A DNA stretch of 64,000 nucleotides, taken from an uncultured archaeon. GTDB lineage: Archaea > Micrarchaeota > Micrarchaeia > Anstonellales > Bilamarchaeaceae. A program made the position numbers and the translations under genes. The notes beneath the pieces are model-generated. The model did no database searches and was not told the DNA's origin. It worked only from the letters and a program-made list of their open reading frames with translations. The stretch lies in NCBI GenBank assembly GCA_963734525.1, contig CAVTHI010000001.1, positions 25,637 through 89,636 of the forward strand, read 5' to 3'. Numbering within the stretch: position 1 is the first letter of the stretch; every line of letters begins with the position of its first letter. Of this stretch, positions 17,396-64,000 are shown in pieces.

Positions 17396-18292
17396 TCAGA
17401 GGTTTAAAACAGCACCGGTCGAGGCGCGGGCGCGCCTGAGCACGTGCGAGCCGTCGCCGGTGAAGAATTCGACTTTCTTCGCCCCCGTTCCCCCCACGAA
17501 ATCCACGAGGTCGTTGAAGTCCGCATGGTCGCTGAGAGGGAACGCCGCGTCCGTGTTGAACCGGTAATGGAGCGCCCAGCCGGTCGCGACCGCGCAAAGC
17601 GTCTTCCTCTCGAAGGCCTGCGCGAGGCGGTGCGCGAAATACCGCTTCGCCTTCCCCATCGGGACCAGCGCCACGAAGCGACGGGACATCGCCTCCTCGG
17701 CCTCGTCCGTTCCGACCACGATGCGGTCGAGCTTCAGCCCGGACTTTTCGTATATGGAGCAGAACGATTCGGTTTTTTGCGTCACGACCGGGGCGACCGA
17801 GCAGCCGTTCAGTATCCTGATTACCTCCTGCGCCTTCCCGAGCTCGTAGCATCCGATAATCAGGTTCGCGTCATTGTTGCCGGACACCCAATGCCTGATT
17901 TGCTCGTGCACCTCTTCGTGAGGGGGGAAAACGTAGTCGGGGTCGCCGTATGTCGCTTCCATGATGAGCCTGTCGCATTGAGGAATCTGCGCCTTCATCC
18001 CGAAGATGTTAGGCTTCACGCAGAAATCGCCGGTATAGACCGTGCGCTCCCCGCCGCAATCCGCCGCGAGCATGCGCGCGCCGAGGATGTGCCCCGCGTC
18101 GAGAAGCTCGGCCCCTTCCAGCGATGCGGGCTCGGCATCGAGGCTTGCAAGCGCCAGCGTCTCCGCGCTTGCGATAATCCTTTCCTCGTTCTTTATCCCG
18201 CCGGTGTGGTCGGAATGCGCGTGAGAGAGGAACGGCAGGTCCCCTCCCGGGCCGTCCAGGCCGATGAGTGTGCCCCTGCATTTGATGCGCAT
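17396..18292 (-). CDS. MBL-fold metallo-hydrolase
   Basis: HAHSDHTGG metal-binding motif, further His/Asp ligands (TGDF, DHAD). Confidence 0.7.
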   Translation of the reverse strand: MRIKCRGTLIGLDGPGGDLPFLSHAHSDHTGGIKNEERIIASAETLALASLDAEPASLEGAELLDAGHILGARMLAADCGGERTVYTGDFCVKPNIFGMKAQIPQCDRLIMEATYGDPDYVFPPHEEVHEQIRHWVSGNNDANLIIGCYELGKAQEVIRILNGCSVAPVVTQKTESFCSIYEKSGLKLDRIVVGTDEAEEAMSRRFVALVPMGKAKRYFAHRLAQAFERKTLCAVATGWALHYRFNTDAAFPLSDHADFNDLVDFVGGTGAKKVEFFTGDGSHVLRRARASTGAVLNL

Positions 18293-18318
18293 GGATGGTA
18301 TTGGGCGGAAAAAAGATA

Positions 18319-19005
18319 TTAATACATCGACCGGTCGTCCTCTTCCTTGTAGGAGTAGGCCAGGATGGCCTTGATTACCTGCGCCCGCTTCTTCCCGACG
18401 CCGGGCACAGCGGCTATGTCGCGCTCGCTGGCGTGCGCGAGGGATTCGACGCTCCCGAAATGAAGCAGGAGGGCCTTTGCCAGTTTCGGCCCGATTGTTG
18501 GAAGCGACTCCACTATGGAGCGCGCGGTCTGCGACGGCGTGAAGGTGCGCTTCTTCGCATAGATCCGCATCGGCTGTTTCTTTGCGATTTGCTCGTGCTT
18601 CGCCAGATGGAAGACGAGCTCGGCCGTCCCGGCCTTATCCCGCGTGAATATGACCGATGCGCCGAAATCCGCGATGATTGAGGAATACGCGCCGAGCAGC
18701 GACTCGCGGCTTAGGCGCTCCTCGTCGCTCATGCCCTCTATGACCACGACGACGCGTTCGTAGTTCGAAACGAGGTTGGGGAGCTGGGAGAACAGGCGGC
18801 CGTCAATCACGGACTGCTCGAAATCCGAGCGCGTCTTGCGCTCCACGGCGACACGGGCCGAGCAGAGGAAATCGCCCACGGAAAGCACGCGCCGCTCGAC
18901 TTCCGCCCCGAGCGAGCGGAACGTGTCGTCGAAAAAGCGGTCCTCGCGTTCGTCGACAGCAATCGTTATTTTCGGGCTTTCGGGGCTGTCCAGGAACTGC
19001 TGCAT
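18319..19005 (-). CDS. XPF/ERCC4-family endonuclease, short archaeal form (nuclease domain + HhH2)
   Basis: ITIAVDEREDR...VERKTRSDF ERCC4 catalytic motif; C-terminal helix-hairpin-helix pair (LPTIGPKLAKALLLHFGSVESL...VPGVGKKRAQ). Confidence 0.75.
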   Translation of the reverse strand: MQQFLDSPESPKITIAVDEREDRFFDDTFRSLGAEVERRVLSVGDFLCSARVAVERKTRSDFEQSVIDGRLFSQLPNLVSNYERVVVVIEGMSDEERLSRESLLGAYSSIIADFGASVIFTRDKAGTAELVFHLAKHEQIAKKQPMRIYAKKRTFTPSQTARSIVESLPTIGPKLAKALLLHFGSVESLAHASERDIAAVPGVGKKRAQVIKAILAYSYKEEDDRSMY

Positions 19006-19018
19006 GCAAGCACCCCGT

Positions 19019-19699
19019 TCATCGTTCCATTTCTATGTATCCTTTTATCTCGTCGAAACTGATGGAGCAGCCGGAGTATTTCATCTTGTAGAGCGCGGCT
19101 TCGAGGGCCTCCCTCTGGAGGTTGGAGAAATTCTTGAAATAGCCGTTCTCGTACGCGAGGACCACGAGCTCGCTGCTGCGCAGGACGTTGAGCTTGGATA
19201 TCCGCGACGAGAGCTCGCGGAAGCTGTTCTTGTTGACCATCACGTTGACCTGGAACTCGCTTTCGAGGTGCGCTTTCAGCTGGAACGGCGCCTCGATGAG
19301 CATGCGCGTCGTCCGCTCGTCCACGATGATGTCCTCCACCCCGAGCGCGGAGGCGAGGGCGAGCATCTCGGACTCCCCGAACTGCAGGAGGCGGATGGGC
19401 TGGCCCTTCATGTAGAACATGTTGTTGGCCGCGTGCATCACCTTCCTCGCTTCGTCCTCGACCTTCGCATCGACGACTTCTATGACGCCGTCCGCTATCG
19501 CGTCCTTGATGCGTATGGCCGAGAAGAGGTGCTTTTTCAGGCCGTTGTAGAGCGGGCGGGTGACCGTCTCGTATTCCACGGACGGGGGAATCACGAAACG
19601 GACATTATGGTGCTCGGAAAAATGGTAGAGGATGTTGTCGAGGCAGCCGGCCGTCAGCGAGATGAGAACCCCGGAATCGCACAGGACGTCGCGTGTCAT
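19019..19699 (-). CDS. hypothetical protein with PIN-like N-terminal domain
   Basis: N-terminal DVLCDSGVLISL, FVIPPSV, and DIIVDERTT acidic motifs spaced like PIN nucleases; ~90-aa helical C-terminal extension. Confidence 0.4.
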   Translation of the reverse strand: MTRDVLCDSGVLISLTAGCLDNILYHFSEHHNVRFVIPPSVEYETVTRPLYNGLKKHLFSAIRIKDAIADGVIEVVDAKVEDEARKVMHAANNMFYMKGQPIRLLQFGESEMLALASALGVEDIIVDERTTRMLIEAPFQLKAHLESEFQVNVMVNKNSFRELSSRISKLNVLRSSELVVLAYENGYFKNFSNLQREALEAALYKMKYSGCSISFDEIKGYIEMER

Positions 19700-19763
19700 G
19701 GTGTGGGTTTACTCGGCCTTCAATTATAAAGATTCTCCCGTATCAATGCCGCCGTTCCCCGGC

Positions 19764-20312
19764 CTAGCCGCCAAGAATCTTGCGGGCGATTTTCATCCGC
19801 TCGTTTATCGTCTTTTCGGCCTGGAGGCGGTCGAACATCATCGTCTCGCCGGCGTAATCGAGGATTTCCTGCTTCTCCAGGCCGGTCATCTCGGCCGCCA
19901 CGCCGAGGCTCATCCCCTGCGCGTAGAATGTGGCGGCCATCTTGAGTTTCCCCTTCGTCACGAGGTCGACAACGAACCGCGCGTCCTTCTCCTCCAGATG
20001 CGCGATTGCCGCCTCGAGCTCGGAGAATATCTGTGTGAGCTCGGCCTCGCTCGCCGAATCCAGGCGCTCGGTCAGGCGCTCGAACACGCGCTCGATGCCG
20101 ATTAGGCCGGACTTGTATTCCGGGCGGAGGAACCTGGGCTTGGACACGATTTTCGAGAGCACGTACGAGAAGACGGCCAGGTTGAAGCATGCCAGGTTGC
20201 AGTGCATCGCCGTCGCCTTCAGGACGTCGTCGTTGAGCTTGCGTAGGAGGCGCTGGTTCCTCTTGCGGAACGCCGAAAGAATCTTGGCCGCCATCGAGGA
20301 TTGTGTTTCCAA
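19764..20312 (-). CDS. hypothetical protein (182 aa)
   Basis: ORF co-directional with XPF and PIN-like genes; no recognised domain. Confidence 0.4.
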   Translation of the reverse strand: METQSSMAAKILSAFRKRNQRLLRKLNDDVLKATAMHCNLACFNLAVFSYVLSKIVSKPRFLRPEYKSGLIGIERVFERLTERLDSASEAELTQIFSELEAAIAHLEEKDARFVVDLVTKGKLKMAATFYAQGMSLGVAAEMTGLEKQEILDYAGETMMFDRLQAEKTINERMKIARKILGG

Positions 20313-20396: not shown

Positions 20397-20843
20397 ATGG
20401 TGAAACCAATGAAAGAACACGACGACAAGGAATATAAACCTATTGACTCCGCGTTCACCAAAGAAGTACGAAGCGACCTAGAAACCCACATTGACAAGTT
20501 CAAGGACCCCGTGGTCCTGGGCGAGCTGGTGTACCGCCTCCTGGAGGAGCGCGAGAACACGAACCGGCTGCTCAAGACCCTGCTCCAGAAGCTGGAATCA
20601 CTCGAAATGAAGATGGGAGCGGCATCCGCGGCACCTACGGGCGTTGCGGAAACCCTCCTTCCAGAAATCGACGAACAGATTATGCGGTTCGTCAAGGACA
20701 CGGGGAAAGCGACGGCAGAGGAAGTTCGTGCGAAATTCAAGTACCGTGGAAAGAACGCGGCATCCGCGAGGCTCAACCGCCTCTGCGACATGGGCCTGCT
20801 GCAGAAACAGCAGGTAGGAAAGAAGGTTTTCTTCTTTCCGTAA
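20397..20843 (+). CDS. winged-helix DNA-binding protein (putative transcriptional regulator)
   Basis: C-terminal EVRAKFKYRGKNAASARLNRLCDMGLLQKQQVGKKVFFF wHTH-like segment. Confidence 0.5.
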   Translation: MVKPMKEHDDKEYKPIDSAFTKEVRSDLETHIDKFKDPVVLGELVYRLLEERENTNRLLKTLLQKLESLEMKMGAASAAPTGVAETLLPEIDEQIMRFVKDTGKATAEEVRAKFKYRGKNAASARLNRLCDMGLLQKQQVGKKVFFFP

Positions 20844-20900
20844 ATGAGAAAAAGAAGCAACACCGAGGGGGACCCCAAATGCGGCTCCCTTCGTAACACT

Positions 20901-21135
20901 GATGGCAAGGCGAGAACGGATCAACCTCCCGCCTCTCTCAATTTTTGGTCCGTTCTCACTTGTTATCCTCCCACAAAGAAAGAGAAAAAGAAGGCTAGAA
21001 GCTCCGACCAGGGTTTCTAGAATCCTCTTTTTTTATTTTCACTTGGGCATCGACAGAAAATCGGGAAGAAGGTCTCTTCTTCCGTCATACGCATGGCAAG
21101 GGGCGCAGGCCGAAACCTCCCGCCTCTCTCAAATT
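20901..21135 (+). repeat. pair of ~45-bp imperfect direct repeats (19-nt perfect core aacctcccgcctctctcaa at 20923-20941 and 21114-21132) flanking a 145-bp spacer with two hairpins
   Basis: atggcaagg...aacctcccgcctctctcaa...ttttgg(t/c)cc present twice; spacer has inverted repeats ctagaagc/gtttctag and ggaagaagGTCTcttcttcc. Confidence 0.6.
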
Positions 21136-21323
21136 ATTATTTTGGCCCATAACCCCTTGCCTTTAATACTCCTTTTTGCCGCGAAGCAGGAAATACATTA
21201 TCAGGATCAGCACGAATATCACTGCAGCGCCAGCCAGCACGAGCGGCAGGCTTTCCAGTATGGGCCCGAAGCCGAGCCGGGACGGGTCCGGAACCGGGTT
21301 CTGGTATTCTTCGAGGAAGCGTC

Positions 21324-22814
21324 ATGGCGGATAATGATACTGCCATTAATAAATACTGGTTGCAGCATATCCAACTCATGGCGAGCAGGGATTTCGAAAC
21401 CACCAAAGACATAGTCATACCGACGGACCCTTTCGAGAGGATAATAGGCCAGCCCGAGGCGGTGGCCATCGCCAAGATGGTCCCGTACCAGAGGAGGCAC
21501 CTGCTGCTCGTCGGCCCGCCCGGAACGGGCAAGAGCATGATAGCGCAGGCGATAGCGAGCGTGCTCCCGAAGCCCAAGTTCGAGGTCTCGGTGCTTGACA
21601 ACCCGGAGAATCCGGAAAGGCCCATCGTCCAGATACGCGACGAGAGCCAGATTAAGAGGGACAAGAAGGACGAGAAGCAGATAGGCACGGAAGTGTCCCC
21701 GATAGACGTCCCGACGTTCGTTTCCGAAAGGCTCGGCTTCCGCTGCCGCAGGTGCGCGACGCTGAGCCAGTTCACCGAGAGCATCTGCCCGCAGTGCGGC
21801 GCGGCGAAGAACCAGAAGAACCTGTTCGACAAGTTCGGCATGCCGCCGCAGGGGGCCGGAGCCCCTGAGCCGGACAAGGCCCGAGTCGCCACGACGAGAA
21901 GGTCGATGGACGGCAAGGAGGACGTCATAATCTACGAAAGGAGCCATGACGGCCGCATCATGATGCTTCGGCAGGAGGAAATCAAGAAGCTTGAGGAGCT
22001 GAGCAAGAAGGCGAAAAGGAAAATCCTGGTCCCCCTCAAGCGCTCGACGTTCGTGCAGGCCAGCGGCGGAAGCGAGACCGAGCTGCTCGGCGACATCAGG
22101 CACGACCCGTACGGCGGGCACCAGGCTCTCGGCACACCCACATACCAGCGCGTGCTCCCCGGAGCGGTCCACGAGGCGCACGAAGGCGTCCTTTTCATAG
22201 ACGAGCTCTCGACGCTCGGCAACATCCAGAGGTATATCCTTTCCGCGATGCAGGACAAGGCGTTCCACATCGTCGGGCGCAACCCGATGAGCAGCGGCGC
22301 GGCGGTCCGCGTAGAGGCTGTCCCGTGCGACTTCATATTCGTGGGCGCGTGCAACATCAACGACATCAAGCACATCCTGCCCCCGATGCGCTCGAGAATC
22401 CGCGGCGACGGCTATGAGTGCCTCATGAACGCGTACATGGACGACAACGACGTGAACGAGGAGAAGCTGGAGCAGTTCATCGCGCAGGAGATACTGAAGG
22501 ACGGGAAAATCCCGCACGCGGAGCGCAAGTCGGTCAAGCTCGCCATCGACGAGGCCAGGAACATCGCCCGCAGGATAGACAACGTGAAGGGATTCACGCT
22601 GCGCCTGCGCAACCTGAGCGGAATCATGAAGATGGCCGGCGATATGGCCGCGACACAGAAGAAGGAGTTCATCGAGCCAAAGGATGTCGAAATCGCAATC
22701 CGCGAGTCGAGGCCTATTGAGGACAAGCTCCGCGAGAAATACGGCAACTGGTGGAGCGCCGAAGTGGCGGACTACGGCGTCAGGAGCGAGAAGGCGGGCC
22801 CAGAGACTGCGTGA
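21324..22814 (+). CDS. LonB-type AAA+ ATPase homolog lacking TM helices and protease domain, with inserted C4 zinc ribbon
   Basis: Walker A LLLVGPPGTGKS, Walker B FIDELS, sensor motif PPMRSRIRGDGYE as in archaeal LonB; insertion CRRCATLSQFTESICPQCG between Walker A and B; ends at 496 aa with no Ser-Lys protease domain. Confidence 0.6.
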   Translation: MADNDTAINKYWLQHIQLMASRDFETTKDIVIPTDPFERIIGQPEAVAIAKMVPYQRRHLLLVGPPGTGKSMIAQAIASVLPKPKFEVSVLDNPENPERPIVQIRDESQIKRDKKDEKQIGTEVSPIDVPTFVSERLGFRCRRCATLSQFTESICPQCGAAKNQKNLFDKFGMPPQGAGAPEPDKARVATTRRSMDGKEDVIIYERSHDGRIMMLRQEEIKKLEELSKKAKRKILVPLKRSTFVQASGGSETELLGDIRHDPYGGHQALGTPTYQRVLPGAVHEAHEGVLFIDELSTLGNIQRYILSAMQDKAFHIVGRNPMSSGAAVRVEAVPCDFIFVGACNINDIKHILPPMRSRIRGDGYECLMNAYMDDNDVNEEKLEQFIAQEILKDGKIPHAERKSVKLAIDEARNIARRIDNVKGFTLRLRNLSGIMKMAGDMAATQKKEFIEPKDVEIAIRESRPIEDKLREKYGNWWSAEVADYGVRSEKAGPETA

Positions 22815-25925: not shown

Positions 25926-27563
25926 ATGAGAACCTTCCTCGCGTTCGGACTTATCCTGATATTGGGATTGTACGGCTGTATCGGCCAGGCGTGCCCCAGC
26001 ACGGTCGAGCCGGTTTGCGGAAAAGACGGCGTTACTTACACCAACGCATGCCAGGCGGTGCAGGCCGGGACCACGGTCAAGGCCAACGGCACCTGCGAAG
26101 CGAACCTCTGCGAAGATTCGGACGGCGGCAAGGACCTGTTCAACCAGGGGACCGCCTCGGCCCGCGGAGGCAGTGTCCAGGACAAGTGCAAGGATGCGCT
26201 TACCGTGACCGAAGCGTACTGCTCGGCCAGTGCGGCGGTCTCGGAAGACTTCCCCTGCCCGGGCGGCTATGCGTGCATGGCAGGCGCATGCGTCAAGACG
26301 CCCTGCCAGGATACCGACAACGGGAAGGATGCGAATGTCAGGGGCACGGTTACATCGCCCGGGACAAGCGCCAGCGACGAGTGCACGGGCTCATATTCGG
26401 TCAAGGAATACTATTGCAGCGGCGATGCGGCCAAATCCGAGGATATCGCATGCGGCGACGGGATGCAGTGCGTCAGCGGCGCGTGCATCGAGGCGGCGTG
26501 CGTCGATTCGGACGGCGGCAAGGATGCCCTGAAAAGCGGCACCGTCACGAAGGGGCAGGATACGTTCCAGGATGCGTGCAGCGGCTCCACTGCGGTGAAG
26601 GAATACTACTGCAGCGCAAAGAATGTCCAATCCGAGGTGCTCCCGTGCGGGTCCGGGTTCGTCTGCCAGGACGATAAGTGCCTCAAGGAGGTCTGCACCG
26701 ACAGCGACAACGGCAAGGACACCTCGGTGAAAGGCACGGCGTCATACCAGAACAAGACCGGGACCGACAGCTGCTACAGCAGCACGGCAGTCCTGGAATA
26801 TTTCTGCTATTCCGAGACGTCGATGCAGTACGAGAAGATCAACTGCCCGAGCGGCAAGGAATGCTTCGACGGCAAGTGCAGGACTGTCGAGTGCACCGAG
26901 GTCGTGACGAATATCGACGAGGCCAACAAGAGGTATAACATAGCGAACTACGACGACACCGACGAGCTCTTCCTCCACGTCGGGGAGGTAGTCGAGATAA
27001 ACGACGAGTTCCTTGTGAAGCTGTATTCAATCAGCGGCAACACATCCACGTTCAGGATGTACGAGAACTACCAGGCCCTCAAGGACAACGACCACCTCTG
27101 CGCCTTCTCTCTCGACGATGGCGACAGCGACAATGATTTCTGCGGCGAGAACACCGAGACCATCGAGATACTTTCGGTGAACGACAGCGAGGACATGGTC
27201 GAGCTTTCAATCGGCGAGTACCACGCGGTCCAGTTCTACACCCAGGAGGGCAGCATCAGCGACTGGACTGACAACCCGATTTGCCCCGATGACGAGACCG
27301 TCTACGACCTGTACAAGTCGGAGTTCTACCCCTACCTCGACACGTCAGCCTCGCACCTCGACCTCGAAGGGAAGAGGTTCGACATATTCGACACGACTGC
27401 GAGGATAATCGACGTGTCGAGCGACACGGTGACAATCGAGCTTGACGGGGAGGAATTCGAGCTCGGGACCGGCGACAGGTTCGACTACCTCGGCCAGGGC
27501 TACAGGGCCACGCTGACGTTCAACGACGGCGGGCTCTTCAAGTTCGACGCCAGGCCGTCCTGA
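25926..27563 (+). CDS. secreted cysteine-rich protein: signal peptide, Kazal-like module, 4 tandem ~65-aa Cys repeats, acidic C-terminal domain
   Basis: hydrophobic N-terminus; PVCGKDGVTYTNAC Kazal signature with six Cys; repeats begin C-x-D-(S/T)-D-(G/N)-G-K-D and contain EYYCS and C-x-G-x-C motifs. Confidence 0.7.
   Translation: MRTFLAFGLILILGLYGCIGQACPSTVEPVCGKDGVTYTNACQAVQAGTTVKANGTCEANLCEDSDGGKDLFNQGTASARGGSVQDKCKDALTVTEAYCSASAAVSEDFPCPGGYACMAGACVKTPCQDTDNGKDANVRGTVTSPGTSASDECTGSYSVKEYYCSGDAAKSEDIACGDGMQCVSGACIEAACVDSDGGKDALKSGTVTKGQDTFQDACSGSTAVKEYYCSAKNVQSEVLPCGSGFVCQDDKCLKEVCTDSDNGKDTSVKGTASYQNKTGTDSCYSSTAVLEYFCYSETSMQYEKINCPSGKECFDGKCRTVECTEVVTNIDEANKRYNIANYDDTDELFLHVGEVVEINDEFLVKLYSISGNTSTFRMYENYQALKDNDHLCAFSLDDGDSDNDFCGENTETIEILSVNDSEDMVELSIGEYHAVQFYTQEGSISDWTDNPICPDDETVYDLYKSEFYPYLDTSASHLDLEGKRFDIFDTTARIIDVSSDTVTIELDGEEFELGTGDRFDYLGQGYRATLTFNDGGLFKFDARPS
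26106..26895 (+). repeat. four tandem ~195-bp intragenic repeats encoding the Cys-rich modules
   Basis: repeat starts tgcgaagattcggacggcggcaagga / tgccaggataccgacaacgggaagga / tgcgtcgattcggacggcggcaagga / tgcaccgacagcgacaacggcaagga. Confidence 0.7.
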
Positions 27564-27662: not shown

Positions 27663-28570
27663 TGAAAATACTTATTACCGGCTCGAGCGGCACGATAGGG
27701 ACAAGGCTGTTCGAGATGCTGCTTGCACAGGGGCACGATGTCACGGGAGCCGACCGCAGGCCGAACAAATGGAAGCCGGAGCTGGATGCGTAAGACACGC
27801 CGGATAGACCTTCTCGACAAGGACGCGCTGATGGGGCTTGAAGGGCGGTATGACGCAATCGTTCATCTTGCAGCAAACGCGCTCGTGTACAAGCTGGTCG
27901 TCAACCCGGACATGGCCATGGAGAATGTGAACACCTGCTTCAACGTCCTGGAATACGCCAGGGCCAAAGATGTCGGCAGGGTGTTCTTCGCATCGTCCAG
28001 GGAAGTCTACGGCAACATCATGGGCGCAAAGCATGTAAGCGAAGGCGACATGCGGGTCGGGAACTGCGAAAGCCCGTATTCGGCGAGCAAGATGGCAGGT
28101 GAGGCGTACATGCACGCGTATTCAAACTGCTACGGCATCAGGCACGTGATAGCGCGGTTTTCCAACGTCTATGGGATGTACGACGACTCCGAGCGCGTCG
28201 TGCCCCTCTGGATACGGCAGATGAAGAAGGGCGAGGCCGTGACCATCTACGGCAGGGAGAAGACATTGGATTTCACCTACATCGACGACTGCGTCGACGG
28301 CATTACCCGCATCGTCGGCAGGTTCGATTCCGTAGCAGGCGAAACGTTCAACATCGCGTCCGGCAACGACGTCAAGCTGACCGACGTCGCGGAGATGCTG
28401 AAGGGCATCATCAAGTCGAAATCGGAAATACGCTGGGCGACATCCGTCCGGGCGAGGTCTGGAAATACAAGGCCGACAATTCCAAGGCGAAGAAACTGCT
28501 CGGATTTATGCCGAAAAGAGGATCGAGGACGGACTGAAAAGGACTGTCGGGTGGTATTCAGCGTATTAAA
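27663..28570 (+). CDS. NAD-dependent epimerase/dehydratase, interrupted by 2-3 apparent +1 frameshifts
   Basis: N-terminal MKILITGSSGTIGTRL Rossmann motif stops at ~27794; body in ORF 27723..28577 (YSASK catalytic motif); conserved C-terminus ...GLKRTVGWY found in a third frame near 28440-28560. Confidence 0.7.
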
Positions 28571-28779
28571 AAAATAGAAAATAGTGTTCCAGGTAAAATT
28601 AGTGGATTAGTAACTGGACTAGTGCTACTTAGGGGTGCAGAAAGGCCATTGAAGGGGGTATCTGACGAAATTCGGATTGACCTTCCACTGTGAACGGTTC
28701 CAGTAATAGAACTTTTTATGCACTGACGGGAGATATTAGAGGATTATTTGAAGCGTATTCTAATTCAAAGAAAATTTTA

Positions 28780-29238
28780 TTATGACCTAAACCCTTTTGG
28801 GCGGGATTTTTTACTTCTAATATCTTTCAAACTAATCCAACTTTCGGCTTCACAAAAAGTAATTTCAAATGCATCAAAGAAACCACTTCGTCCTAAAACT
28901 ATTTCATCGAGCTCGTTCAAAATACAACAATGGATATTTCGAAGTGTAACAGGATTGTGTATCAGAGGTATTTCCATCGTGATACTAGATTCAATACCGG
29001 ATACTAGTCCCCCGGCAGTATCAATCTTAGTTTCCTCACCTTGTTCGAGCTCAAGGATTTCTGCGATATCATTGTTGATATACATCCAAGTTGATCCTGA
29101 ATCGATTAACCCCATTGTTTCGAATTGGTTGCCTCCACTACCTTTCAAAATAACAGGTATACGAGGAGCTAGCGGTTTGGAATCGTCTTCGTGCTCTAAT
29201 GACAGTGATTTTCTATAATGAAACTTTTGCCCACTCAT
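28780..29238 (-). CDS. retropepsin-like aspartic peptidase (clan AA)
   Basis: LIDSGST D(S/T)G active-site motif and downstream EIVLGRSGFF hydrophobic-Gly motif; 152 aa; in low-GC islet. Confidence 0.6.
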   Translation of the reverse strand: MSGQKFHYRKSLSLEHEDDSKPLAPRIPVILKGSGGNQFETMGLIDSGSTWMYINNDIAEILELEQGEETKIDTAGGLVSGIESSITMEIPLIHNPVTLRNIHCCILNELDEIVLGRSGFFDAFEITFCEAESWISLKDIRSKKSRPKGFRS

Positions 29239-29242
29239 AGAA

Positions 29243-29449
29243 TCACAATATTTCCATGGAATTTTTTTTGGGGATTTTCGTTAACATGACACGTTTGTTT
29301 TTTGATTCCCCCAAAGCCTTTTTGTAGACGTCCGTGGCATTAGGCCCAGACGCTATAAGATTACCTTTGAAAATAGCTACCCACATACCCTGAAAATTAG
29401 ATAAATCCATTGATAGATAAGCATGATAATTCTTTGAGATGGACGTCAA
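29243..29449 (-). CDS. small hypothetical protein (68 aa) immediately upstream of retropepsin-like gene
   Basis: ORF 4 nt upstream of the protease gene, same strand, same low GC. Confidence 0.4.
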   Translation of the reverse strand: MTSISKNYHAYLSMDLSNFQGMWVAIFKGNLIASGPNATDVYKKALGESKNKRVMLTKIPKKNSMEIL

Positions 29450-29609
29450 AGCATATCACCTTAGTTGATAGTTTCCAGGTAGTATAATAAACTTATAGAC
29501 CTCGTTGTGGCGCATTATTGTGAATTATAGTTATAATTGGTGTCTACTAATATAAAAATCTGTCTTTTTTGGGTATACTTACCACCGAGGGATACTCAGG
29601 AAAAGAAAA

Positions 29610-29787
29610 TGCTCCTGCCGCGATTTGAACGCGGGTTCACAGAGTTCTTCCGCCTTTTAGGAAAAGGCGGCCCAAAACAGGTCTGTCTGCAAATCCTTCG
29701 AGGATTTGCATACAGATTGTTTTTGGGCGCTTTTTTCCAAAAAGCGCTGAGAGTCTGTTGTCCTTGACCGGGCTAGACTACAGAAGC
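29610..29787 (-). tRNA. tRNA-Glu (anticodon CTC) with 103-nt intron at canonical 37/38 position (exons ~29748-29787 and ~29610-29644)
   Basis: hand-folded: acceptor GCTTCTG/CAGGAGC, D-arm GTCT/GGAC, anticodon stem ACAGA/TCTGT split by intron, loop CTCTCA|C, T-arm CCGCG TTCAAAT CGCGG. Confidence 0.65.
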
Positions 29788-30134
29788 TAAGCTTAGCGAC
29801 TAATCATGACAACAAGGGTTTTAAAAGATTAAAGCAGGCCCCTTTTCCTCAGCTCCCCGGCGATTTTCGACGGCGCGGGCCTGCAGTTGCAGCTCCGCGC
29901 ATGCGCAAGGTGCCACTCGACCCTCTGCTCGAACGTCGCCCCCACCGGGATGCGGTTCCTATCGTGCCAAACTGAATTTATCTTTAACACCATTCCCCCA
30001 CCTTGGGAGAATTAGCAAAGGAAGATAGAAAAGGCTATCCGAGCCCCACAAGGCTCGCATGGATTATAACTTAGCCCCGATTTCTCCCCGGCTTCACGCC
30101 GAAGAGAGGGGCTAGGCGGGGATTGTCGCGCGTA

Positions 30135-41692: not shown

Positions 41693-41846
41693 GCCTCGGT
41701 AGCTCAGCCGGTAGAGCGGCTGACTGTTAAGGCTTTTTGACTTCTGTCTTTCTCCGGGCAAAAACCCTGGAAAAAACCCTGAGGATAAAGGAGGTCAATT
41801 CGCCAAAGCAATCAGCAGGCCGGAGGTTCGAATCCTCCCCGGGGCG
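41693..41846 (+). tRNA. tRNA-Asn (anticodon GTT) with 81-nt intron at canonical 37/38 position (~41730-41810)
   Basis: hand-folded: acceptor GCCTCGG/CCGGGGC (one GU), D-arm GCTC AGCCGGTA GAGC, anticodon stem GCTGA/TCAGC interrupted, loop CTGTTA|A, T-arm GGAGG TTCGAAT CCTCC. Confidence 0.75.
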
Positions 41847-59045: not shown

Positions 59046-61586
59046 TCAGCTGCCGCTAGGGATGCTCGGCGCGCTCGCGTTCGAGCTGTTGTTGGGGATG
59101 TACGGCGTCCCGCTTAAGGGGAGCGGGCGCTCCATGAGCTGGAAAAGCCGCTTCCCGTCGGGGCAGAAGTTGTTGTCGCACCCGTTGCTCAGGTAGATGA
59201 AGGCCTCGACCTTCTTCTTGCCAGGGTCGGCCTGCCGCGCGAGGAAAGGCACTTCGCATTCCTGCACGTACTGGATGAAATCCGTGTAGCCGTAGCATTC
59301 GTAGGGCGGGTTCTTCTTCGGGTGCCCGTCCTGGCACCGGCTGTCGCTCTGGCCGTCGGACGAGGCGCAATAGGTCTCGTTGATGGCCCAGCTCTGCGAG
59401 AAGCCGTACGCCCAGCAGTCGCCGTTCGACACGCTGCTTGAGCAGCGCGGGTGGTCCGCGGCCCTGGCCTTCGAGCCCCAGAAGCCGGAGTACATGTTGC
59501 CTGCGATGTATAATGCGAAAAGGTTGTCCTTGTCGAGGTCACCTGCGCCCCAGTTCAGCTTGCCCCTGTTCGTGTTTATCCAGCCCCTGGCGTTCCTCAT
59601 CATCGCCTCTATCTTGAGGGTGCCGATGCAGATGGAATCGGTAGGGACGAATGGGTTGAAATTTGGATTGCATCCTTTTGCGCCGCTAAGGTCGAGATTG
59701 CGCATGCCCGAGCGGGTGAATATGTCTTCATACGGGCCGTCGCCGCCGCCTGGGAAGTTCGGGGCCGGCCAGAACGTGAACGGCGGCTCGAGGCTCTGCA
59801 TTATGCCGACGGCGCACCAGCGCCAGTCCGGCTGCGCGGCCGGAGGCGCGTTCGTGAGGTTCGCGTTGCAGTTGCCGTCCGGGTCGTACATCTCGTCGTA
59901 TGCTATGTCGTAGCACTCGTCCTTGCCCGGCCCGGGCTCGAAGCATCCCGGCCCGTCATAGCCCTGCTTGCAGACCTTCGCCGCCGAGCAGGGGTTGAAG
60001 TCGCTTTCGGTAAGTATGAATGCGCGGACTATCATCGGGTCGAGGTTGCGCGCACTCGCCCACTGGTTGATTTCCGGGAAGCTGTTGCAGTACCGGTCGG
60101 GCGGAACGCCGCCGCCGGGCGAGAGGCTCGTGAAGATGCTTGCAAGCGGCCTGCTGGCATTCGATATCAGGCACGCGTCGCACGTGAAGAGGAGCGGCGC
60201 CGGGGCGCGGAGCTGGTTGGTCTGCTGCTGCATGATGTCGCGCCCTGCGAAAGCGAAACCGCGCATGTAGTCCTGGTTCTCGTTCGCATTGCACGCCGTG
60301 CCCGATTCGTTGCCGAAAAGGATCAGGCGGTTGCCGGAGTTCTGGCCGGAAACGTTGGAGAACGCCTGGCAGCCCCCGTACCATGCCTGGAGGCGCTGCG
60401 CCGTCCTGCCCACGCCGCAGTTCGTGCAGTTGAGGGGGTTCGTGACGCCGATTCCGCCGCTCGTGTTGAATGAATATGGCGCTATGCCTATCACGCCGCG
60501 CTTCTGCAGCGTGGACACCCCGAAGGGGAAGAACGACCCGTATGCGGCGACCACGTCGCTTTCGGTCCAGTTGCACGAGTTGTCGATATCGCTCGTCCCG
60601 GGGTCGAAAAGGACGTACGGGATGATGGAGGGCTTGCTCCAGTTGTAAAGGGAATACATCGAGAAGTTCGTGGCCTGCGAACGGACGCGCGCGGCGTCGC
60701 ATGAATGGACGTACTTGCCGTTGATGCCGTACGCCACGTAGTCGACCTTGTCCGCATCGGCGCCGAGGGCCATCATCACGTCGTTAAGCGCATTGAAGTC
60801 GTTGATTTTCGGGGCGACCGCGATGAAGCAGTATATTTTTCCTGCGGCACGGTCGTTCCTGCACTCCTGGTCGATTGCGCGGACCTGGTTGGCGATTTCC
60901 GGCGCCCTGCTCCGGTCGAAGTCCATCTCCGTGACGACTATCACCGGGCCGACGGGGCCGCTGGAGAGCCTCCCGAGGTAGACATCGTCGCCTTCGGTTC
61001 CTAGTATCCTCGCGATGTCCTGCGTGCGGCTGATGTTGATGTTGGTGCCGTTGCTGTACAGGATGTAGACCGGTATGATGTCCTTGCTGAGGAAGCACAT
61101 CGTGCGCATCGAATCGGGGCGCAGGTACGGAGATTCGTTGTTCCCCACCAGCCACTGGACGGCCATGTTCAGGCGGTCCGAGCAGAACGTGTTCGCCGTG
61201 CCGAAATCGCCGAACGTCGGACCCTGCCCTATCATGAACGGGCGCACCGAAAGGCTCTGGTCCATGGAGGTATTGTTGTAGTTGGCATAGCGCGCCATCT
61301 GCTGGGGCGTGCAGTTCTTGTCGAAATAGCAGTAGCCGCCTATCAGGCTTTGCATGGGGCCGAAGATGTTCGTGCCGTTCCGGCAGACCATGCACCAGCA
61401 GCTTCCGGGCTTGCAGTACTCGACCATGGAGGCGTTGTTGATCGCCACGCGGTTGAGGCCGTCGCGGTAATCCTGTTCGAAGAGCGAGGAGCCGCCGTTC
61501 AGCCTCTGCAGGCATCCCGTGAGCACGATAGCCCCGCCCAGCACGACCGCTATGGCCAGTATGAATGCCGCTCGCCTCGAATCCAT
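59046..61586 (-). CDS. large secreted cysteine-rich protein (846 aa) with many N-x-S/T sequons and an embedded SLT-like lytic transglycosylase motif set
   Basis: N-terminal TM/signal with LTGC; >40 Cys; >20 sequons; ILTESDFNPCSAA ... CAVGIMQ ... ALYIAGNMY resembles ES / GLMQ / AYNAG motifs of family-1 lytic transglycosylases with an insertion. Confidence 0.6.
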   Translation of the reverse strand: MDSRRAAFILAIAVVLGGAIVLTGCLQRLNGGSSLFEQDYRDGLNRVAINNASMVEYCKPGSCWCMVCRNGTNIFGPMQSLIGGYCYFDKNCTPQQMARYANYNNTSMDQSLSVRPFMIGQGPTFGDFGTANTFCSDRLNMAVQWLVGNNESPYLRPDSMRTMCFLSKDIIPVYILYSNGTNINISRTQDIARILGTEGDDVYLGRLSSGPVGPVIVVTEMDFDRSRAPEIANQVRAIDQECRNDRAAGKIYCFIAVAPKINDFNALNDVMMALGADADKVDYVAYGINGKYVHSCDAARVRSQATNFSMYSLYNWSKPSIIPYVLFDPGTSDIDNSCNWTESDVVAAYGSFFPFGVSTLQKRGVIGIAPYSFNTSGGIGVTNPLNCTNCGVGRTAQRLQAWYGGCQAFSNVSGQNSGNRLILFGNESGTACNANENQDYMRGFAFAGRDIMQQQTNQLRAPAPLLFTCDACLISNASRPLASIFTSLSPGGGVPPDRYCNSFPEINQWASARNLDPMIVRAFILTESDFNPCSAAKVCKQGYDGPGCFEPGPGKDECYDIAYDEMYDPDGNCNANLTNAPPAAQPDWRWCAVGIMQSLEPPFTFWPAPNFPGGGDGPYEDIFTRSGMRNLDLSGAKGCNPNFNPFVPTDSICIGTLKIEAMMRNARGWINTNRGKLNWGAGDLDKDNLFALYIAGNMYSGFWGSKARAADHPRCSSSVSNGDCWAYGFSQSWAINETYCASSDGQSDSRCQDGHPKKNPPYECYGYTDFIQYVQECEVPFLARQADPGKKKVEAFIYLSNGCDNNFCPDGKRLFQLMERPLPLSGTPYIPNNSSNASAPSIPSGS

Positions 61587-61768: not shown

Positions 61769-64000
61769 CTAGTACATGGCCTGCTTGCATGCCGAGTTCT
61801 TGCACATGCTCCCGCGGTAGTTGGACATGCCGCACTTCGGGCAGTACACCACCATCGAGAGCTTCTGGGGCTGGACCAGCTTCGAGAGGCCCTGTCCCAT
61901 GCCTTCCGCCATGCCGCGCAGGTTCGAACCGAACCCGCCGCCGCCGTAGCCGTGCTTCGAGCGCGCGACGTATTTCGCGGCAATCTCCTTCGGAGTCGCC
62001 GACTGCGGGAACAGCGGAACCGGCATGTGCCATATGAAGGCAAGCGGGTTGGCCCACCCGAAGAGCGAGTTCTGCAGCACGCCGAAGCCTCTCAGCTCCT
62101 GGTCCCTGCGTATTGCGAGGGACTCGGCTGAAACCGTCCTTCTCGTGGTGTTGTCCATCGCGGCCGAGTAGAGGTCCTTGTCATAGAGGTAGGTTGCCTC
62201 CTTGCTCCTGAAGAGGTACTCCGCCATCGGCGCGTCGGCCTTCATCGTCATCCTATAGTCGTAGAAGGTTTCGCCGGGGTTGACGTCCTCCGTTCTCGCA
62301 TTCGCATAGACACCCTTCTTCTGCAGGAATATGTCCTGCGGCGCCTGCCTCAGGCCGGTCATGTAGTCGTGCCCGGCAAGCTGGTGCCTCTCGAGGCTGC
62401 CTCCGAAGACGTTCATCTTCGCCATCGTGTCGGAGCTCTTGCCGCCGAACCACTTGAATGACATCGGGTTCAGGGACTGCATTGCTTCAAGCACCCTGGG
62501 CTCGGTGTAGTTCCACTGGCGCAGCGCATCCCCGGTGGAGTCCCACTTGGACGCGTAGCCCTGCATGGACATCTGCATGCCCCTCATCATGCTCACGTAC
62601 GGGCGGAGCATCTTGCCTGCCATGTCCATCGGGAATCCGTAGGGCCCCAGGGTGAAGTTCATATACTCGCCCTTGCCCATGAACGCCCTCAGGTTGTCCT
62701 TCACGTTGAAGGGGACGGCAGGGCCGTAGTGGAACGACGCGGCCCACGCCTGGTGGGTTCCGAAGGAGGACGATATCCTCCACGGGTTCCTGTCTATGGC
62801 GTACTGCCATACCTGGACGTATGCGCCGTGCTGGGCCGCGACCGCCCTGTATGCAATCTTCTCCTCGTCGGAGAGGCCGTTCAGTATCTGGCCGGACTGT
62901 ATCTTGTTCGCCAGCTGGAACGAGTGCATCCTCAGCTGGGATGACGTCGGCGTTATGTCGTATGACGTGTTCAGCAGGTTCCCGCCAGCCGCCATCGCTA
63001 CCTTGGAGATGTAGTCCCCGCCGTGCATGCCTATGTCCCTGAAGGGCTTTATCATCGGGCCCATGCTGGGGCCGTCCACGCCGAAGAAGCGCAGCGACGA
63101 GGGCGCGACAGGAGTGACCTGGCGCTTGGCCTCGACCGTGATTGCGCTCTCGTTCCAGAAGCGCCCGTAGTCGTAGGTCCTCTGGGCTCCTTCCCAGAGC
63201 ACGGACGCGAGCACGCGCTCCTTCTCGTAGTTGTACCCGCCCTCCTTGGCCCACTTGACCGCGGAGTCGAGGAATCCGGTCCATTCGGCCGGGTCCTTGG
63301 ACGAGCGCACCTTCTGGAACTGCATCTGGAGGTCGTCCCGGCTGCCGAAGCTGACGACGACGTCCTCCGGTATGAATTTCCGGAGCACGCCCTTCTCGTC
63401 GCGCAGGGCCGTTTCGCCGGCCATGATGCGGTCCGCATCGCTGAGCATCATGCCCTTCTTGTAGTAGGCATAGCCTCCTTCGCCGAGCATGACTACGGCC
63501 TTGTTGGCCTTGGCCACGTCATCGTAGCTCATGTCCCTCGTTATGACCTTCTGGTAGGACTCCTTGTGCGTGTTCATGAGGTCTTTCAGCTTCGCAAGGT
63601 CCTTGGGGCTCGTGAGGTCCATCTTCGAGAGGAACATCAGGTCGGGGTGGTTGTTCTCCATGCCCTTCTCCTGGAGCGCCTTCTCCATGAAGCCGGCCAT
63701 CACGCCCGCGTAGAACCTCGTGGTCTCGCGGGTGGTGCCGTAGGTGTTTTGCCCGAAGTGGGAGTTGAACCTCGACTCGAAGTCCTGCATGAGCGTCTCG
63801 GTTATCGCGAGCTTCTTCACCACCTGGGTCCTCTGCTCCACGGTCCAGCTTGCCGAGCCGGCCATCCGGTTGGCCTGCGCCTCTACCGAGGCGTTGTAGT
63901 AGGGCGTGTAGCTCCTCGTGAACCTGGACTCGGTGGACTGAGCTATCGCGATGTTCTCCCGCGCGCTCAGTTCCGGGATCCAGTGCCTCTTGACATCCAC
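61769..64000 (-). CDS. large hypothetical protein (>743 aa, 5' end outside window) with C-terminal C4 zinc ribbon
   Basis: uninterrupted 743-codon ORF to window edge; Met/Gly/Tyr-rich; ends CPKCGMSNYRGSMCKNSACKQAMY; no recognised domain. Confidence 0.55.
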   Translation of the reverse strand: MDVKRHWIPELSARENIAIAQSTESRFTRSYTPYYNASVEAQANRMAGSASWTVEQRTQVVKKLAITETLMQDFESRFNSHFGQNTYGTTRETTRFYAGVMAGFMEKALQEKGMENNHPDLMFLSKMDLTSPKDLAKLKDLMNTHKESYQKVITRDMSYDDVAKANKAVVMLGEGGYAYYKKGMMLSDADRIMAGETALRDEKGVLRKFIPEDVVVSFGSRDDLQMQFQKVRSSKDPAEWTGFLDSAVKWAKEGGYNYEKERVLASVLWEGAQRTYDYGRFWNESAITVEAKRQVTPVAPSSLRFFGVDGPSMGPMIKPFRDIGMHGGDYISKVAMAAGGNLLNTSYDITPTSSQLRMHSFQLANKIQSGQILNGLSDEEKIAYRAVAAQHGAYVQVWQYAIDRNPWRISSSFGTHQAWAASFHYGPAVPFNVKDNLRAFMGKGEYMNFTLGPYGFPMDMAGKMLRPYVSMMRGMQMSMQGYASKWDSTGDALRQWNYTEPRVLEAMQSLNPMSFKWFGGKSSDTMAKMNVFGGSLERHQLAGHDYMTGLRQAPQDIFLQKKGVYANARTEDVNPGETFYDYRMTMKADAPMAEYLFRSKEATYLYDKDLYSAAMDNTTRRTVSAESLAIRRDQELRGFGVLQNSLFGWANPLAFIWHMPVPLFPQSATPKEIAAKYVARSKHGYGGGGFGSNLRGMAEGMGQGLSKLVQPQKLSMVVYCPKCGMSNYRGSMCKNSACKQAMY

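Follow-up and report, generated by a model that had tools for sequence, protein, structure and literature searches.

Lon proteases are defined by a motor that is fused to its own protease, and in the archaeal form, LonB, the AAA+ motor additionally carries a transmembrane hairpin as a membrane anchor. In LonC, the protease domain is retained together with a degenerate, ATP-independent AAA-like module that contains a helical insert, and Lon-related modules are also present in the DNA helicases RadA/Sms and ComM. ClpX, a protease-less unfoldase of the broad HCLR group, to which Lon also belongs, uses a C4 zinc domain for the recognition of substrates or adaptors and docks onto a separate peptidase. 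Here, we describe a gene for a LonB-like ATPase in a 64,000-nt stretch of DNA from an uncultured archaeon of the Micrarchaeota (contig CAVTHI010000001.1 of assembly GCA_963734525.1, positions 25,637 to 89,636 of the forward strand; hereafter the window, with positions counted from its first nucleotide). The encoded protein belongs to a group of LonB paralogs that dropped both anchor and protease and kept a competent motor. We put a probability of roughly 0.6 on the reading that this soluble paralog is a ring-shaped unfoldase or translocase devoid of proteolysis of its own, which would work with a separate partner through its C-terminal tail.

LonB-type motor with a zinc-ribbon insert

The presence of the open reading frame (ORF) of 496 aa from which the original prediction was made was confirmed in the window. 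The GC content at its third codon positions (GC3) was 0.85, comparable to that of the confident genes of the 64-kb window. Homologs were found in more than 120 clusters (60-99% identity, approximately 470-485 aa), and their alignments started at Met19 of the query, nearly all of them lacking the 18 N-terminal residues of the ORF. Because the close homologs are all approximately 478 aa long, with a query coverage of 96%, translation most likely starts at Met19 (position 21378), which gives a protein of 478 aa; the ORF thus exists as predicted, and the start at 21324 is probably not the one in use. Residue numbers below follow the 496-aa ORF unless marked as Met19 numbering. The coordinates of the features are given in Table 1.

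The ATPase core is of the LonB type by a wide margin. The archaeal LonB model of NCBIfam (TIGR00764) was matched with an expectation value (E) of 1.4e-99 and 334.4 bits, a score that does not reach the curated whole-protein cutoff of 516.6 bits, and the next NCBIfam families were RtcR (6.5e-11), YifB (4e-9), and RuvB (9e-7). In profile searches of the PDB, the LonB structures 3k1j and 4zpx were recovered at E 1e-77 to 1e-80, and all other entries were matched at E 1e-4 or worse, over the P-loop only. The match to 3k1j (T. onnurineus LonB; E 8.4e-80) consisted of two stretches, query residues 21-109 and 240-473, on either side of an insert. An AlphaFold model was computed from an alignment of 38 sequences that included distant members and LonBs (predicted local distance difference test [pLDDT] 85.9, predicted template modeling score [pTM] 0.75); it replaced a poor model for which the alignment had been limited to 15 close homologs (pLDDT 60, core <50). 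Foldseek searches with this model retrieved 3k1j at E 1e-36 and gave a template modeling score (TM-score) of 0.88 to 4zpx, the isolated ATPase domain of LonB. Weaker matches were to LonC (approximately 1e-13) and to MCM, ComM, BchI, and RuvBL (approximately 1e-7). These results agree with the assignment to archaeal LonB made in the original prediction, and neither the AAA+ groups that it had named as possible better matches (YifB/ComM and RuvB) nor Mg-chelatase or MCM scored above LonB in the profile or structure searches.

Judged from its conserved residues, the motor is catalytically complete, with Walker A and B, sensors 1 and 2, the arginine-finger segment, and both pore loops intact. Catalytic and pore-loop residues were 97-100% conserved among 76 family members and are common to LonB. 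Pore loop 1 of the window protein (IRHDPYGGHQ) carries the family signature HDPYGGH, in which the Tyr is 98%, the Gly 100%, and the final His 90% conserved; the LonB counterpart is HDP[F/Y]QSGG. In the alignment, RHDPYGGH of the window protein corresponds to RHDPFQSGG of T. onnurineus LonB, the Phe of which we take to be the pore aromatic F216; M275 is likewise presumed to be a pore-loop residue. In pore loop 2, GRNPMSSGA of the window protein is matched by GQSEMSSGA of T. onnurineus LonB. The sensor segment that had been singled out as diagnostic of LonB, PPMRSRIRGDGYE, aligned with HPALRSRIRGYGYE of LonB, and its R, S, R, G, G, Y, and E were 97-100% conserved. Because the arginine finger is intact, catalysis should take place between subunits, which suggests that the protein forms a ring.

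In the model, the insert between Walker A and Walker B opened with a beta-hairpin and a helix, both of which are also present in LonB. Next came the zinc ribbon, which was followed after a disordered linker by a beta unit of three strands and, last, by a K/E-rich helix. The K/E-rich stretch seen in the original prediction corresponds to the last of these elements, a helix predicted at residues 199-212 (Met19 numbering). No hydrophobic segment was found in the insert, where the maximal 19-residue Kyte-Doolittle mean was 0.33 vs 2.0-2.9 in canonical LonBs. The four cysteines of the ribbon (C141, C144, C155, and C158) were invariant in 15 close and 18 diverse members, and each was 98-100% conserved in the 76 members. 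Pfam zinc-ribbon families (Zn_ribbon_3, DZR, DUF7130, and zf-ChsH2) matched up to 17 of 23 inserts, and an insert profile matched zinc ribbons of DUF35-type proteins in the PDB (E 2.6e-4) and, weakly, the zinc finger of RadA (E about 1). Conserved basic residues flank the ribbon ([RK]-C-x-[RK]-C ... C-x-x-C-G-x-x-K). The protein can thus be regarded as soluble and free of a membrane anchor, with a zinc ribbon instead of two transmembrane helices between Walker A and Walker B, as had been proposed.

With respect to proteolysis, Lon_C (PF05362) was not found in the ATPase by Pfam, the alignment to TIGR00764 stopped near position 402 of 608, and just approximately 25 residues follow the AAA+ lid. 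A tblastn search of the 64-kb window with four canonical LonBs revealed no coding sequence for a protease domain, nor was Lon_C found in the Pfam annotation of approximately 40 further window genes. Both the missing Ser-Lys proteolytic domain and the missing split protease gene downstream were therefore correctly anticipated. The structural reading of the gene product as a LonB-derived, soluble, protease-less motor with a zinc ribbon in place of the transmembrane hairpin is supported.

Distribution, dnaG linkage and C-terminal tails

An exhaustive search without profiles among 1.8 billion cluster representatives yielded distant relatives of 440-520 aa that aligned in a single stretch (36-49% identity); canonical LonBs (585-1100 aa) ranked lower. 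All of the distant relatives retain CxxC...CxxC where LonB has its hydrophobic hairpin. Named members of the family include proteins of Aciduliprofundum boonei T469 (ADD09201.1), Thermoplasma acidophilum (Q9HLX6), T. volcanium (P58275), and Methanobacterium lacus (ADZ10542.1), and of Methanothermobacter, Methanomassiliicoccales, Altiarchaeota, Korarchaeota, Thor-, Heimdall- and Promethearchaeota, and several orders of Micrarchaeota. By phylum, the family is distributed over Micrarchaeota, Thermoplasmatota, Methanobacteriota, Altiarchaeota, and Asgard archaea. Database labels were generic, such as "Putative lon protease homolog" for Q9HLX6 in Swiss-Prot and "Lon protease family protein" for others.

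In a neighbor-joining tree (91 sequences, 469 columns, 100 bootstraps), the family was monophyletic in 100 of 100 bootstraps, apart from canonical LonB and from transmembrane protease-less LonB-like proteins. The window protein, which has the family architecture (C4 ribbon in the insert, no transmembrane segment, no protease, approximately 470-520 aa), was nested in the family inside a core clade of Micrarchaeota, again with 100/100 support. When the tree was rooted on LonB, an Asgard clade branched first, and the inner branches were short. A genome scan of GTDB species representatives gave 80 loci, of which 76 were of the zinc-ribbon type (59 non-Micrarchaeota and 17 Micrarchaeota); canonical LonBs with a protease tail of 210 aa were found in the same scan in two Micrarchaeota genomes, one of Methanomicrobiales, and one of Altiarchaeota. 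Because canonical LonB co-occurs in the same phyla, the zinc-ribbon family is a paralog of LonB and not its replacement. The family is old and widespread, and the window protein is neither a one-off nor an orphan: it represents a derived member, from Micrarchaeota, of a family that is already in the databases under generic names. Its architecture is a distinct variant relative to the characterized LonA, LonB, and LonC. No functional or comparative account of the family turned up in full-text searches of a literature library, nor any mention of its zinc ribbon, C-terminal tail, or linkage to dnaG.

Two other kinds of Lon-related proteins were observed. A second type of protease-less LonB-like ATPase, represented by P0147 (loci L007-L009, 6001-7224; Micrarchaeota, GCA_018304295.1) and also by P0159, P0162, and P0163, keeps the hydrophobic transmembrane hairpin but, at 407-469 aa, stops where the AAA+ lid ends; its gene has no Lon_C neighbor and is followed by cbiMNQO. 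An ATPase-less S16 (Lon_C) protease that is specific to Micrarchaeota (approximately 575-585 aa) was found in locus L028 (P0376, 11645-13372, plus strand). In this protein, a signal peptide is followed by a region of approximately 375 aa and a membrane anchor at the C-terminus, so that it presumably acts as a protease at the cell surface. This type formed 26 clusters in a database of 5.8 billion proteins.

In the genome scan, 47 of the 59 non-Micrarchaeota loci had dnaG directly upstream of the ATPase gene in the same orientation, and partial dnaG matches were found at the contig edge in 3 more; among the remaining 9, 5 were cut off, or nearly so, upstream of the ATPase gene. Among Micrarchaeota, dnaG was upstream in 1 of 17 loci (L028). 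In the Aciduliprofundum-type locus, a Toprim gene encoding 407 aa overlaps the start of the ATPase gene by 4 bp, and similar Toprim genes precede the ATPase gene in one unclassified lineage, in Thorarchaeota, and at two further loci. These upstream Toprim genes encode archaeal DnaG (NF003108, 465-530 bits vs a cutoff of 300). In the type strain of T. acidophilum, dnaG and the ATPase gene overlap by 19 bp. The dnaG-ATPase arrangement spans four phyla. It lends indirect support to the hedged suggestion, made from the sequence, that the protein is possibly associated with nucleic acids, insofar as the operon is present in most of the other lineages. Archaeal DnaG is an RNA-binding subunit of the exosome (PMC7667871), and its role outside the exosome is a long-standing question (PMC2643942, PMC7667871). 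A genomic-context study of archaeal replication genes from 2008 discussed other neighbors of DnaG but not this ATPase (PMC2643942).

Instead of a protease domain, family members have a C-terminal tail. In the clade of the window protein, the tail KYGNWW..ADYG-x8-GPETA-COOH was almost invariant and its GPETA end invariant; Y, W, D, G, G, E, and A were invariant in all 15 Micrarchaeota-type members. The last 8 residues had a pLDDT <50 and are predicted to be disordered. The penultimate residue was Tyr or Phe in 57 of the 59 complete non-Micrarchaeota members vs 1 of 20 in Micrarchaeota, where the proteins end in [E/G]-[T/I/V]-[A/G/S]. The aromatic ends were of the form ...G/S-Y-x in Thermoplasmatota (27/27), RSYM or RSYL in Methanobacteriaceae (6/6), mostly ...MF[NHS] in Methanomassiliicoccales (penultimate aromatic in 11/11), and ...DYFF or DYYL in Asgard archaea (4/5); a penultimate aromatic residue was also found in Altiarchaeota (3/3). 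Tail length varied between the non-Micrarchaeota clades.

Such ends resemble the hydrophobic-Tyr-any residue (HbYX) motif, for which Forouzan et al. required a small or hydrophobic third-last residue and a penultimate Phe or Tyr (PMC3493965). That survey covered classical AAA proteins only (PAN, CDC48, and AMA), and the word "Lon" is absent from the paper; the strict pattern occurs in approximately 4% of T. acidophilum proteins (PMC3493965). In the present family, it was found in 42 of 59 non-Micrarchaeota members, or in 57 of 59 if Ser is allowed. The nominal binomial P for HbYX-like ends was 2e-44, a value that is overstated because the sequences are related. As far as could be checked, neither the dnaG operon nor the HbYX-like tail of this family has been reported.

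The motif is kept in Asgard archaea, Altiarchaeota, Methanobacteriota, and Thermoplasmatota, and the Asgard clade branches first. The distribution is therefore most simply read as an ancestral aromatic end and dnaG linkage, with a derived state in Micrarchaeota, whose branch would have lost both the linkage and the terminal aromatic residue; given the short inner branches of the tree, this polarity is tentative. The ADYG of the Micrarchaeota tails was considered as a possible ancestral HbYX end that became internal; it lines up with the terminal D-Y-F-F of Asgard proteins and not with the longer euryarchaeal tails, although this alignment is ambiguous. The tail also bears on the original view of the protein as a standalone unfoldase or remodeler, of which we keep the unfoldase part; a "standalone" role is questionable for the family in general, as the conserved C-terminus points to docking onto a partner.

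Neighborhood and other features of the window

Upstream of the ATPase gene lie a small winged-helix gene on the same strand and a block of nuclease-related genes on the opposite strand (Table 1). The winged-helix gene was found near the ATPase gene in 9 of 20 Micrarchaeota loci (19 relatives plus the window), either upstream on the same strand or downstream on the opposite strand, and was always followed by the hairpin element described below. A universal partnership of the ATPase with the small upstream gene was considered and rejected, as the winged-helix gene is confined to the closer Micrarchaeota relatives; the 130-aa gene found upstream in L005 and L006 is unrelated to it and encodes a hydrophobic protein. 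The nuclease block was conserved beside the winged-helix gene, near the ATPase gene, in 7-8 Micrarchaeota loci, and was inverted in one of them (L021). This shared neighborhood may reflect common ancestry rather than function. Membership in a defense system was also rejected, since BrxL and the other PADLOC models gave generic P-loop or sigma-54-type matches only (E no better than 1.7e-9 over approximately 40 residues).

Table 1. Positions of the ATPase gene, its motifs and its neighbors in the window.
Feature	Position	Strand	Conservation or basis
ORF as first delimited, 496 aa including 18 non-conserved N-terminal residues	21324..22814	+	
Likeliest coding sequence of the zinc-ribbon LonB-like AAA+ ATPase, 478 aa plus stop	21378..22814	+	Homolog starts at Met19
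Walker A, GPPGTGKS	21513..21536	+	G, K, S 100% in 76 family members and in LonB
Soluble insert of approximately 150 aa between Walker A and Walker B, replacing the LonB transmembrane hairpin	21597..22043	+	Alignment with canonical LonB
C4 zinc ribbon, CRRC-x10-CPQC	21744..21797	+	Four Cys conserved; Pfam and PDB profile matches
Pore loop 1, LLGDIRHDPYGGHQALG, with aromatic Tyr	22083..22133	+	H, D, P 100%, Y 98% conserved
Walker B, VLFIDE	22188..22205	+	D, E 100% conserved
Pore loop 2 region, IVGRNPMSSGAAVRV	22269..22313	+	Conserved with LonB ITGRS..SSGAMVRT
Sensor-1 strand with invariant Asn (GACNIND)	22335..22367	+	N 100% conserved
Arginine-finger segment, PPMRSRIRGDGYE	22380..22418	+	R, S, R, G, G, Y, E 97-100% in family and LonB
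Sensor-2 segment, TLRLRNL, in lid domain	22596..22616	+	Arg residues 98-100% conserved
C-terminal tail, conserved and flexible, where LonB has its protease domain; KYGNWWSAEVADYGVRSEKAGPETA-COOH	22737..22811	+	15 Micrarchaeota-type members
148-aa protein with C-terminal winged-helix domain (weak Penicillinase_R match)	20397-20843	+	Upstream of ATPase gene, same strand
Block of MBL-fold protein, XPF/ERCC4-HhH nuclease, PIN-like (DUF3368-type) protein and 181-aa protein	17396-20312	-	
CPA2 antiporter and amino-acid permease	Downstream of ATPase gene	-	

The 535-bp spacer before the ATPase gene contains a conserved structured element. Two copies of a hairpin were found at 20898-20972 and 21089-21160 on the plus strand, forming a direct repeat of 60 nt with 73% identity and a spacing of 191 nt. 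The consensus, uGAUGGCAAGG-[stem]-aCCUCCCGCCUCUCuc-[stem']-aCUUG-UUAUCCUCCCA, is non-coding, and a 170-aa ORF at 20902-21414 is regarded as spurious because of 1-nt indels in the element. Copies were also present in L001, L016, L017 (twice), L021, L026, and L089 (twice), always just 3' of the winged-helix gene. With 9 copies, RNAalifold gave 16 base pairs, of which 7 show compensatory double changes; they enclose an invariant loop of 12 nt (CUCCCGCCUCUC), and the G-U pairs were consistent with the plus strand. No Rfam match was found for the element.

Elsewhere in the window, an Rfam tRNA match over 154 nt at 41693-41846 (plus strand; 56.5 bits), not reported by ARAGORN, is probably an intron-containing archaeal tRNA gene. 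The region around 28000-30000 is an island of low GC content (0.455 vs approximately 0.59 elsewhere) with an ORF at 28748-29218 of GC3 0.29, and may be foreign DNA. A Cys-rich, apparently secreted protein of 545 aa is encoded at 25926-27563 (plus strand) and combines an N-terminal motif resembling Kazal-type protease inhibitors with repeated C-x-D-S/T-D-x-G-K-D modules. Further, two very large ORFs on the minus strand, at 59046-61586 (846 aa) and 61769-64000 (>743 aa), had a GC3 of 0.86-0.89 and, at a threshold of E 1e-4, matched no Pfam family.

Proposed function and comparison with known systems

In the proposed mechanism, the LonB-type ATPase would assemble into a ring and thread polypeptides, driven by ATP, through a central pore that bears the Tyr of pore loop 1. 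Because the insert is located where LonB has its anchor, which faces the membrane on the side of substrate entry, it would probably form a crown that selects substrates or adaptors, a role likened to that of the ClpX zinc-binding domain, and it may recognize nucleic-acid-bound proteins. The flexible tail would dock the exit face of the ring onto a separate partner. The HbYX-like end in most of the family makes the 20S proteasome the obvious candidate, and ancestrally it was probably the partner. The ancestral and most widespread form would be co-transcribed with dnaG and would dock on the proteasomal alpha-ring through its HbYX-like end, as part of a pathway that involves DnaG and the exosome. 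Given the operon, the clients or the pathway are suspected to be connected with both of these, or with proteins bound to nucleic acids. In the Micrarchaeota branch of the window, the ATPase may have a different partner or act as a free remodeler.

Several points weigh against this proposal. DnaG is found nowhere in the 64-kb window, and GPETA, the end of the window protein, does not have the HbYX pattern, so that the partner model extends to this protein by homology only. Many members elsewhere (among them those of Thermoplasma and Methanobacteriaceae) have Ser before the Tyr, which fits "small" but not the strict pattern, and the family members are phylogenetically related, so that the tail counts are not independent events. 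The placement of the insert on the entry face comes from the analogy with LonB and not from model coordinates, and ring formation, ATPase activity, unfolding, and the partner are inferred for every family member. In addition, an approximate probe for a 20S proteasome subunit gave no match in the collected loci, a result that is not informative. As a separate observation, a PAC2-family gene in L005 was the sole hint of a proteasome in Micrarchaeota.

The intact motor and pore loops would also serve a free-standing chaperone, remodeler, or disaggregase that acts without a peptidase partner, like ClpB or ClpX without ClpP. Such a role, which we consider rather unlikely, would be in accordance with the absence of an adjacent protease gene in approximately 90 loci and with a Micrarchaeota tail that has no aromatic docking residue, and LonC, the next closest structure, has a reported chaperone-like activity. 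However, the extreme C-terminus is strongly constrained in every clade (GPETA here, HbYX-like elsewhere), which is hard to explain without a partner, and the dnaG operon is left unexplained. The operon is the starting point of a different and unlikely reading, in which the ring ATPase would be a nucleic-acid motor that partners DnaG and translocates on, or unwinds, DNA or RNA. The ribbon would then act in trans as the zinc-binding domain that is present in bacterial DnaG and T7 gp4 but missing from archaeal DnaG, and the two proteins would form a pair that resembles a primase-helicase or an RNA translocase feeding the exosome. The occurrence of the dnaG-ATPase operon in four phyla, where the stop and start codons often overlap, would fit, as would the conserved basic residues around the ribbon, its weak resemblance to the RadA zinc finger, the weaker structural matches to the ring helicases MCM, ComM, and RuvBL, and the XPF/PIN/MBL nuclease block that the ATPase gene adjoins in the window. 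In contrast, the pore loops hardly differ from those of LonB, a protease (Tyr in HDPYGG), and are not the basic loops that contact nucleic acids, LonB scores approximately 30 orders of magnitude above any helicase, a conserved HbYX-like end is a hallmark of docking to peptidase rings and not of helicases, and the protein is highly conserved in the window lineage even though linkage to dnaG is absent there.

A split Lon, with a Ser-Lys protease domain contributed by a separate gene and assembled in trans, is very improbable, though conceivable insofar as ATPase-less Lon_C proteins exist in Micrarchaeota, one of them 2.3 kb downstream of a family member in L028, and LonB ATPases with transmembrane segments but no protease domain, such as P0147, exist as well. 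This arrangement was rejected, since a Lon_C match was nearby in just 1 of approximately 92 family loci, and that protein is of a rare type whose signal peptide and C-terminal membrane anchor would place it outside the cytoplasm; moreover, the 64-kb window contains no Lon_C, and full-length LonB coexists in the same phyla. The probability that the gene is a decaying remnant of a canonical LonB gene, or an artefact of assembly or gene calling, is negligible. A bit score below the TIGR00764 cutoff might be read in this way, but the reading is refuted by the conservation data: hundreds of homologs are of constant length at 60-99% identity, the monophyly of the family is fully supported, catalytic residues, insert, and tail are all conserved, and complete genomes of cultured species also contain the gene.

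The preferred reading, an unfoldase that works with a separate partner, can be extended to the tentative proposal that the family is a fourth, Lon-derived class of archaeal proteasome-activating unfoldases beside PAN, CDC48/VAT, and AMA, co-expressed with DnaG, and that the GPETA tail of the window lineage was rewired to another partner. If this were true, the class would couple the unfolding and degradation of proteins to nucleic-acid metabolism that depends on DnaG and the exosome, and its zinc-ribbon crown would recognize clients associated with DnaG or bound to nucleic acids. PAN is absent from Thermoplasmata, for which CDC48/VAT is the one proteasomal ATPase proposed so far (PMC3493965). 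With the dnaG operon and the HbYX-like end, the hypothesis becomes testable in T. acidophilum, A. boonei, Methanobacterium, and Methanothermobacter, and a conserved operon partner offers a new approach to the role of archaeal DnaG outside the exosome. More generally, the family would illustrate how a fused AAA+ protease becomes a free unfoldase that needs a peptidase or client in trans. For the window itself, the significance is more modest, its protein being a derived member of a catalogued but unstudied family.

Compared with archaeal LonB (3K1J/4ZPX), the family has the same AAA+ motor, with 44-47% identity in the core and with the Walker, sensor, and arginine-finger motifs, the pore loops, and the lid in common, and its insert interrupts the motor where that of LonB does, after Walker A and before Walker B. 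The two differ in what is attached to this motor: a transmembrane hairpin and a Ser-Lys protease in LonB, a zinc-ribbon module and a tail of 25 aa in the family. The orthologs Q9HLX6, P58275, ADD09201.1, and ADZ10542.1 share the architecture at approximately 480-500 aa; they are encoded downstream of dnaG and end in ...SYE, ...GYQ, or ...SYM, whereas the window protein has no dnaG neighbor and ends in ...GPETA.

PAN, CDC48/VAT, and AMA are ring unfoldases with a flexible tail and a penultimate Tyr or Phe, as in the family as a whole, according to the criterion of Forouzan et al. (PMC3493965). However, they belong to the classical AAA clade and not to the Lon type, they carry other N-terminal or insert domains, and the window protein does not have the motif. 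The likeness to ClpX consists of a protease-less motor combined with a C4 zinc module, but the zinc domain of ClpX is N-terminal and that of the window protein lies between Walker A and Walker B; ClpX docks via IGF loops and not via a C-terminal tail, and sequence similarity was found over the P-loop only (E 2e-3). LonC of Meiothermus taiwanensis (PDB 4FW9 and others), the second-best structural match, has a non-membrane insert between the positions of Walker A and B. The window protein differs from it in its intact ATPase motifs and missing protease, and on these grounds does not belong to LonC. RadA/Sms and ComM, to which the matches were weak, are ring ATPases that join a zinc finger and/or Lon-derived modules with work on nucleic acids. 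Their motors are of the RecA type (RadA) and the MCM type (ComM), and their Lon-like part is the protease fold, which is the opposite of the arrangement in the window protein, where the Lon-type motor is kept.

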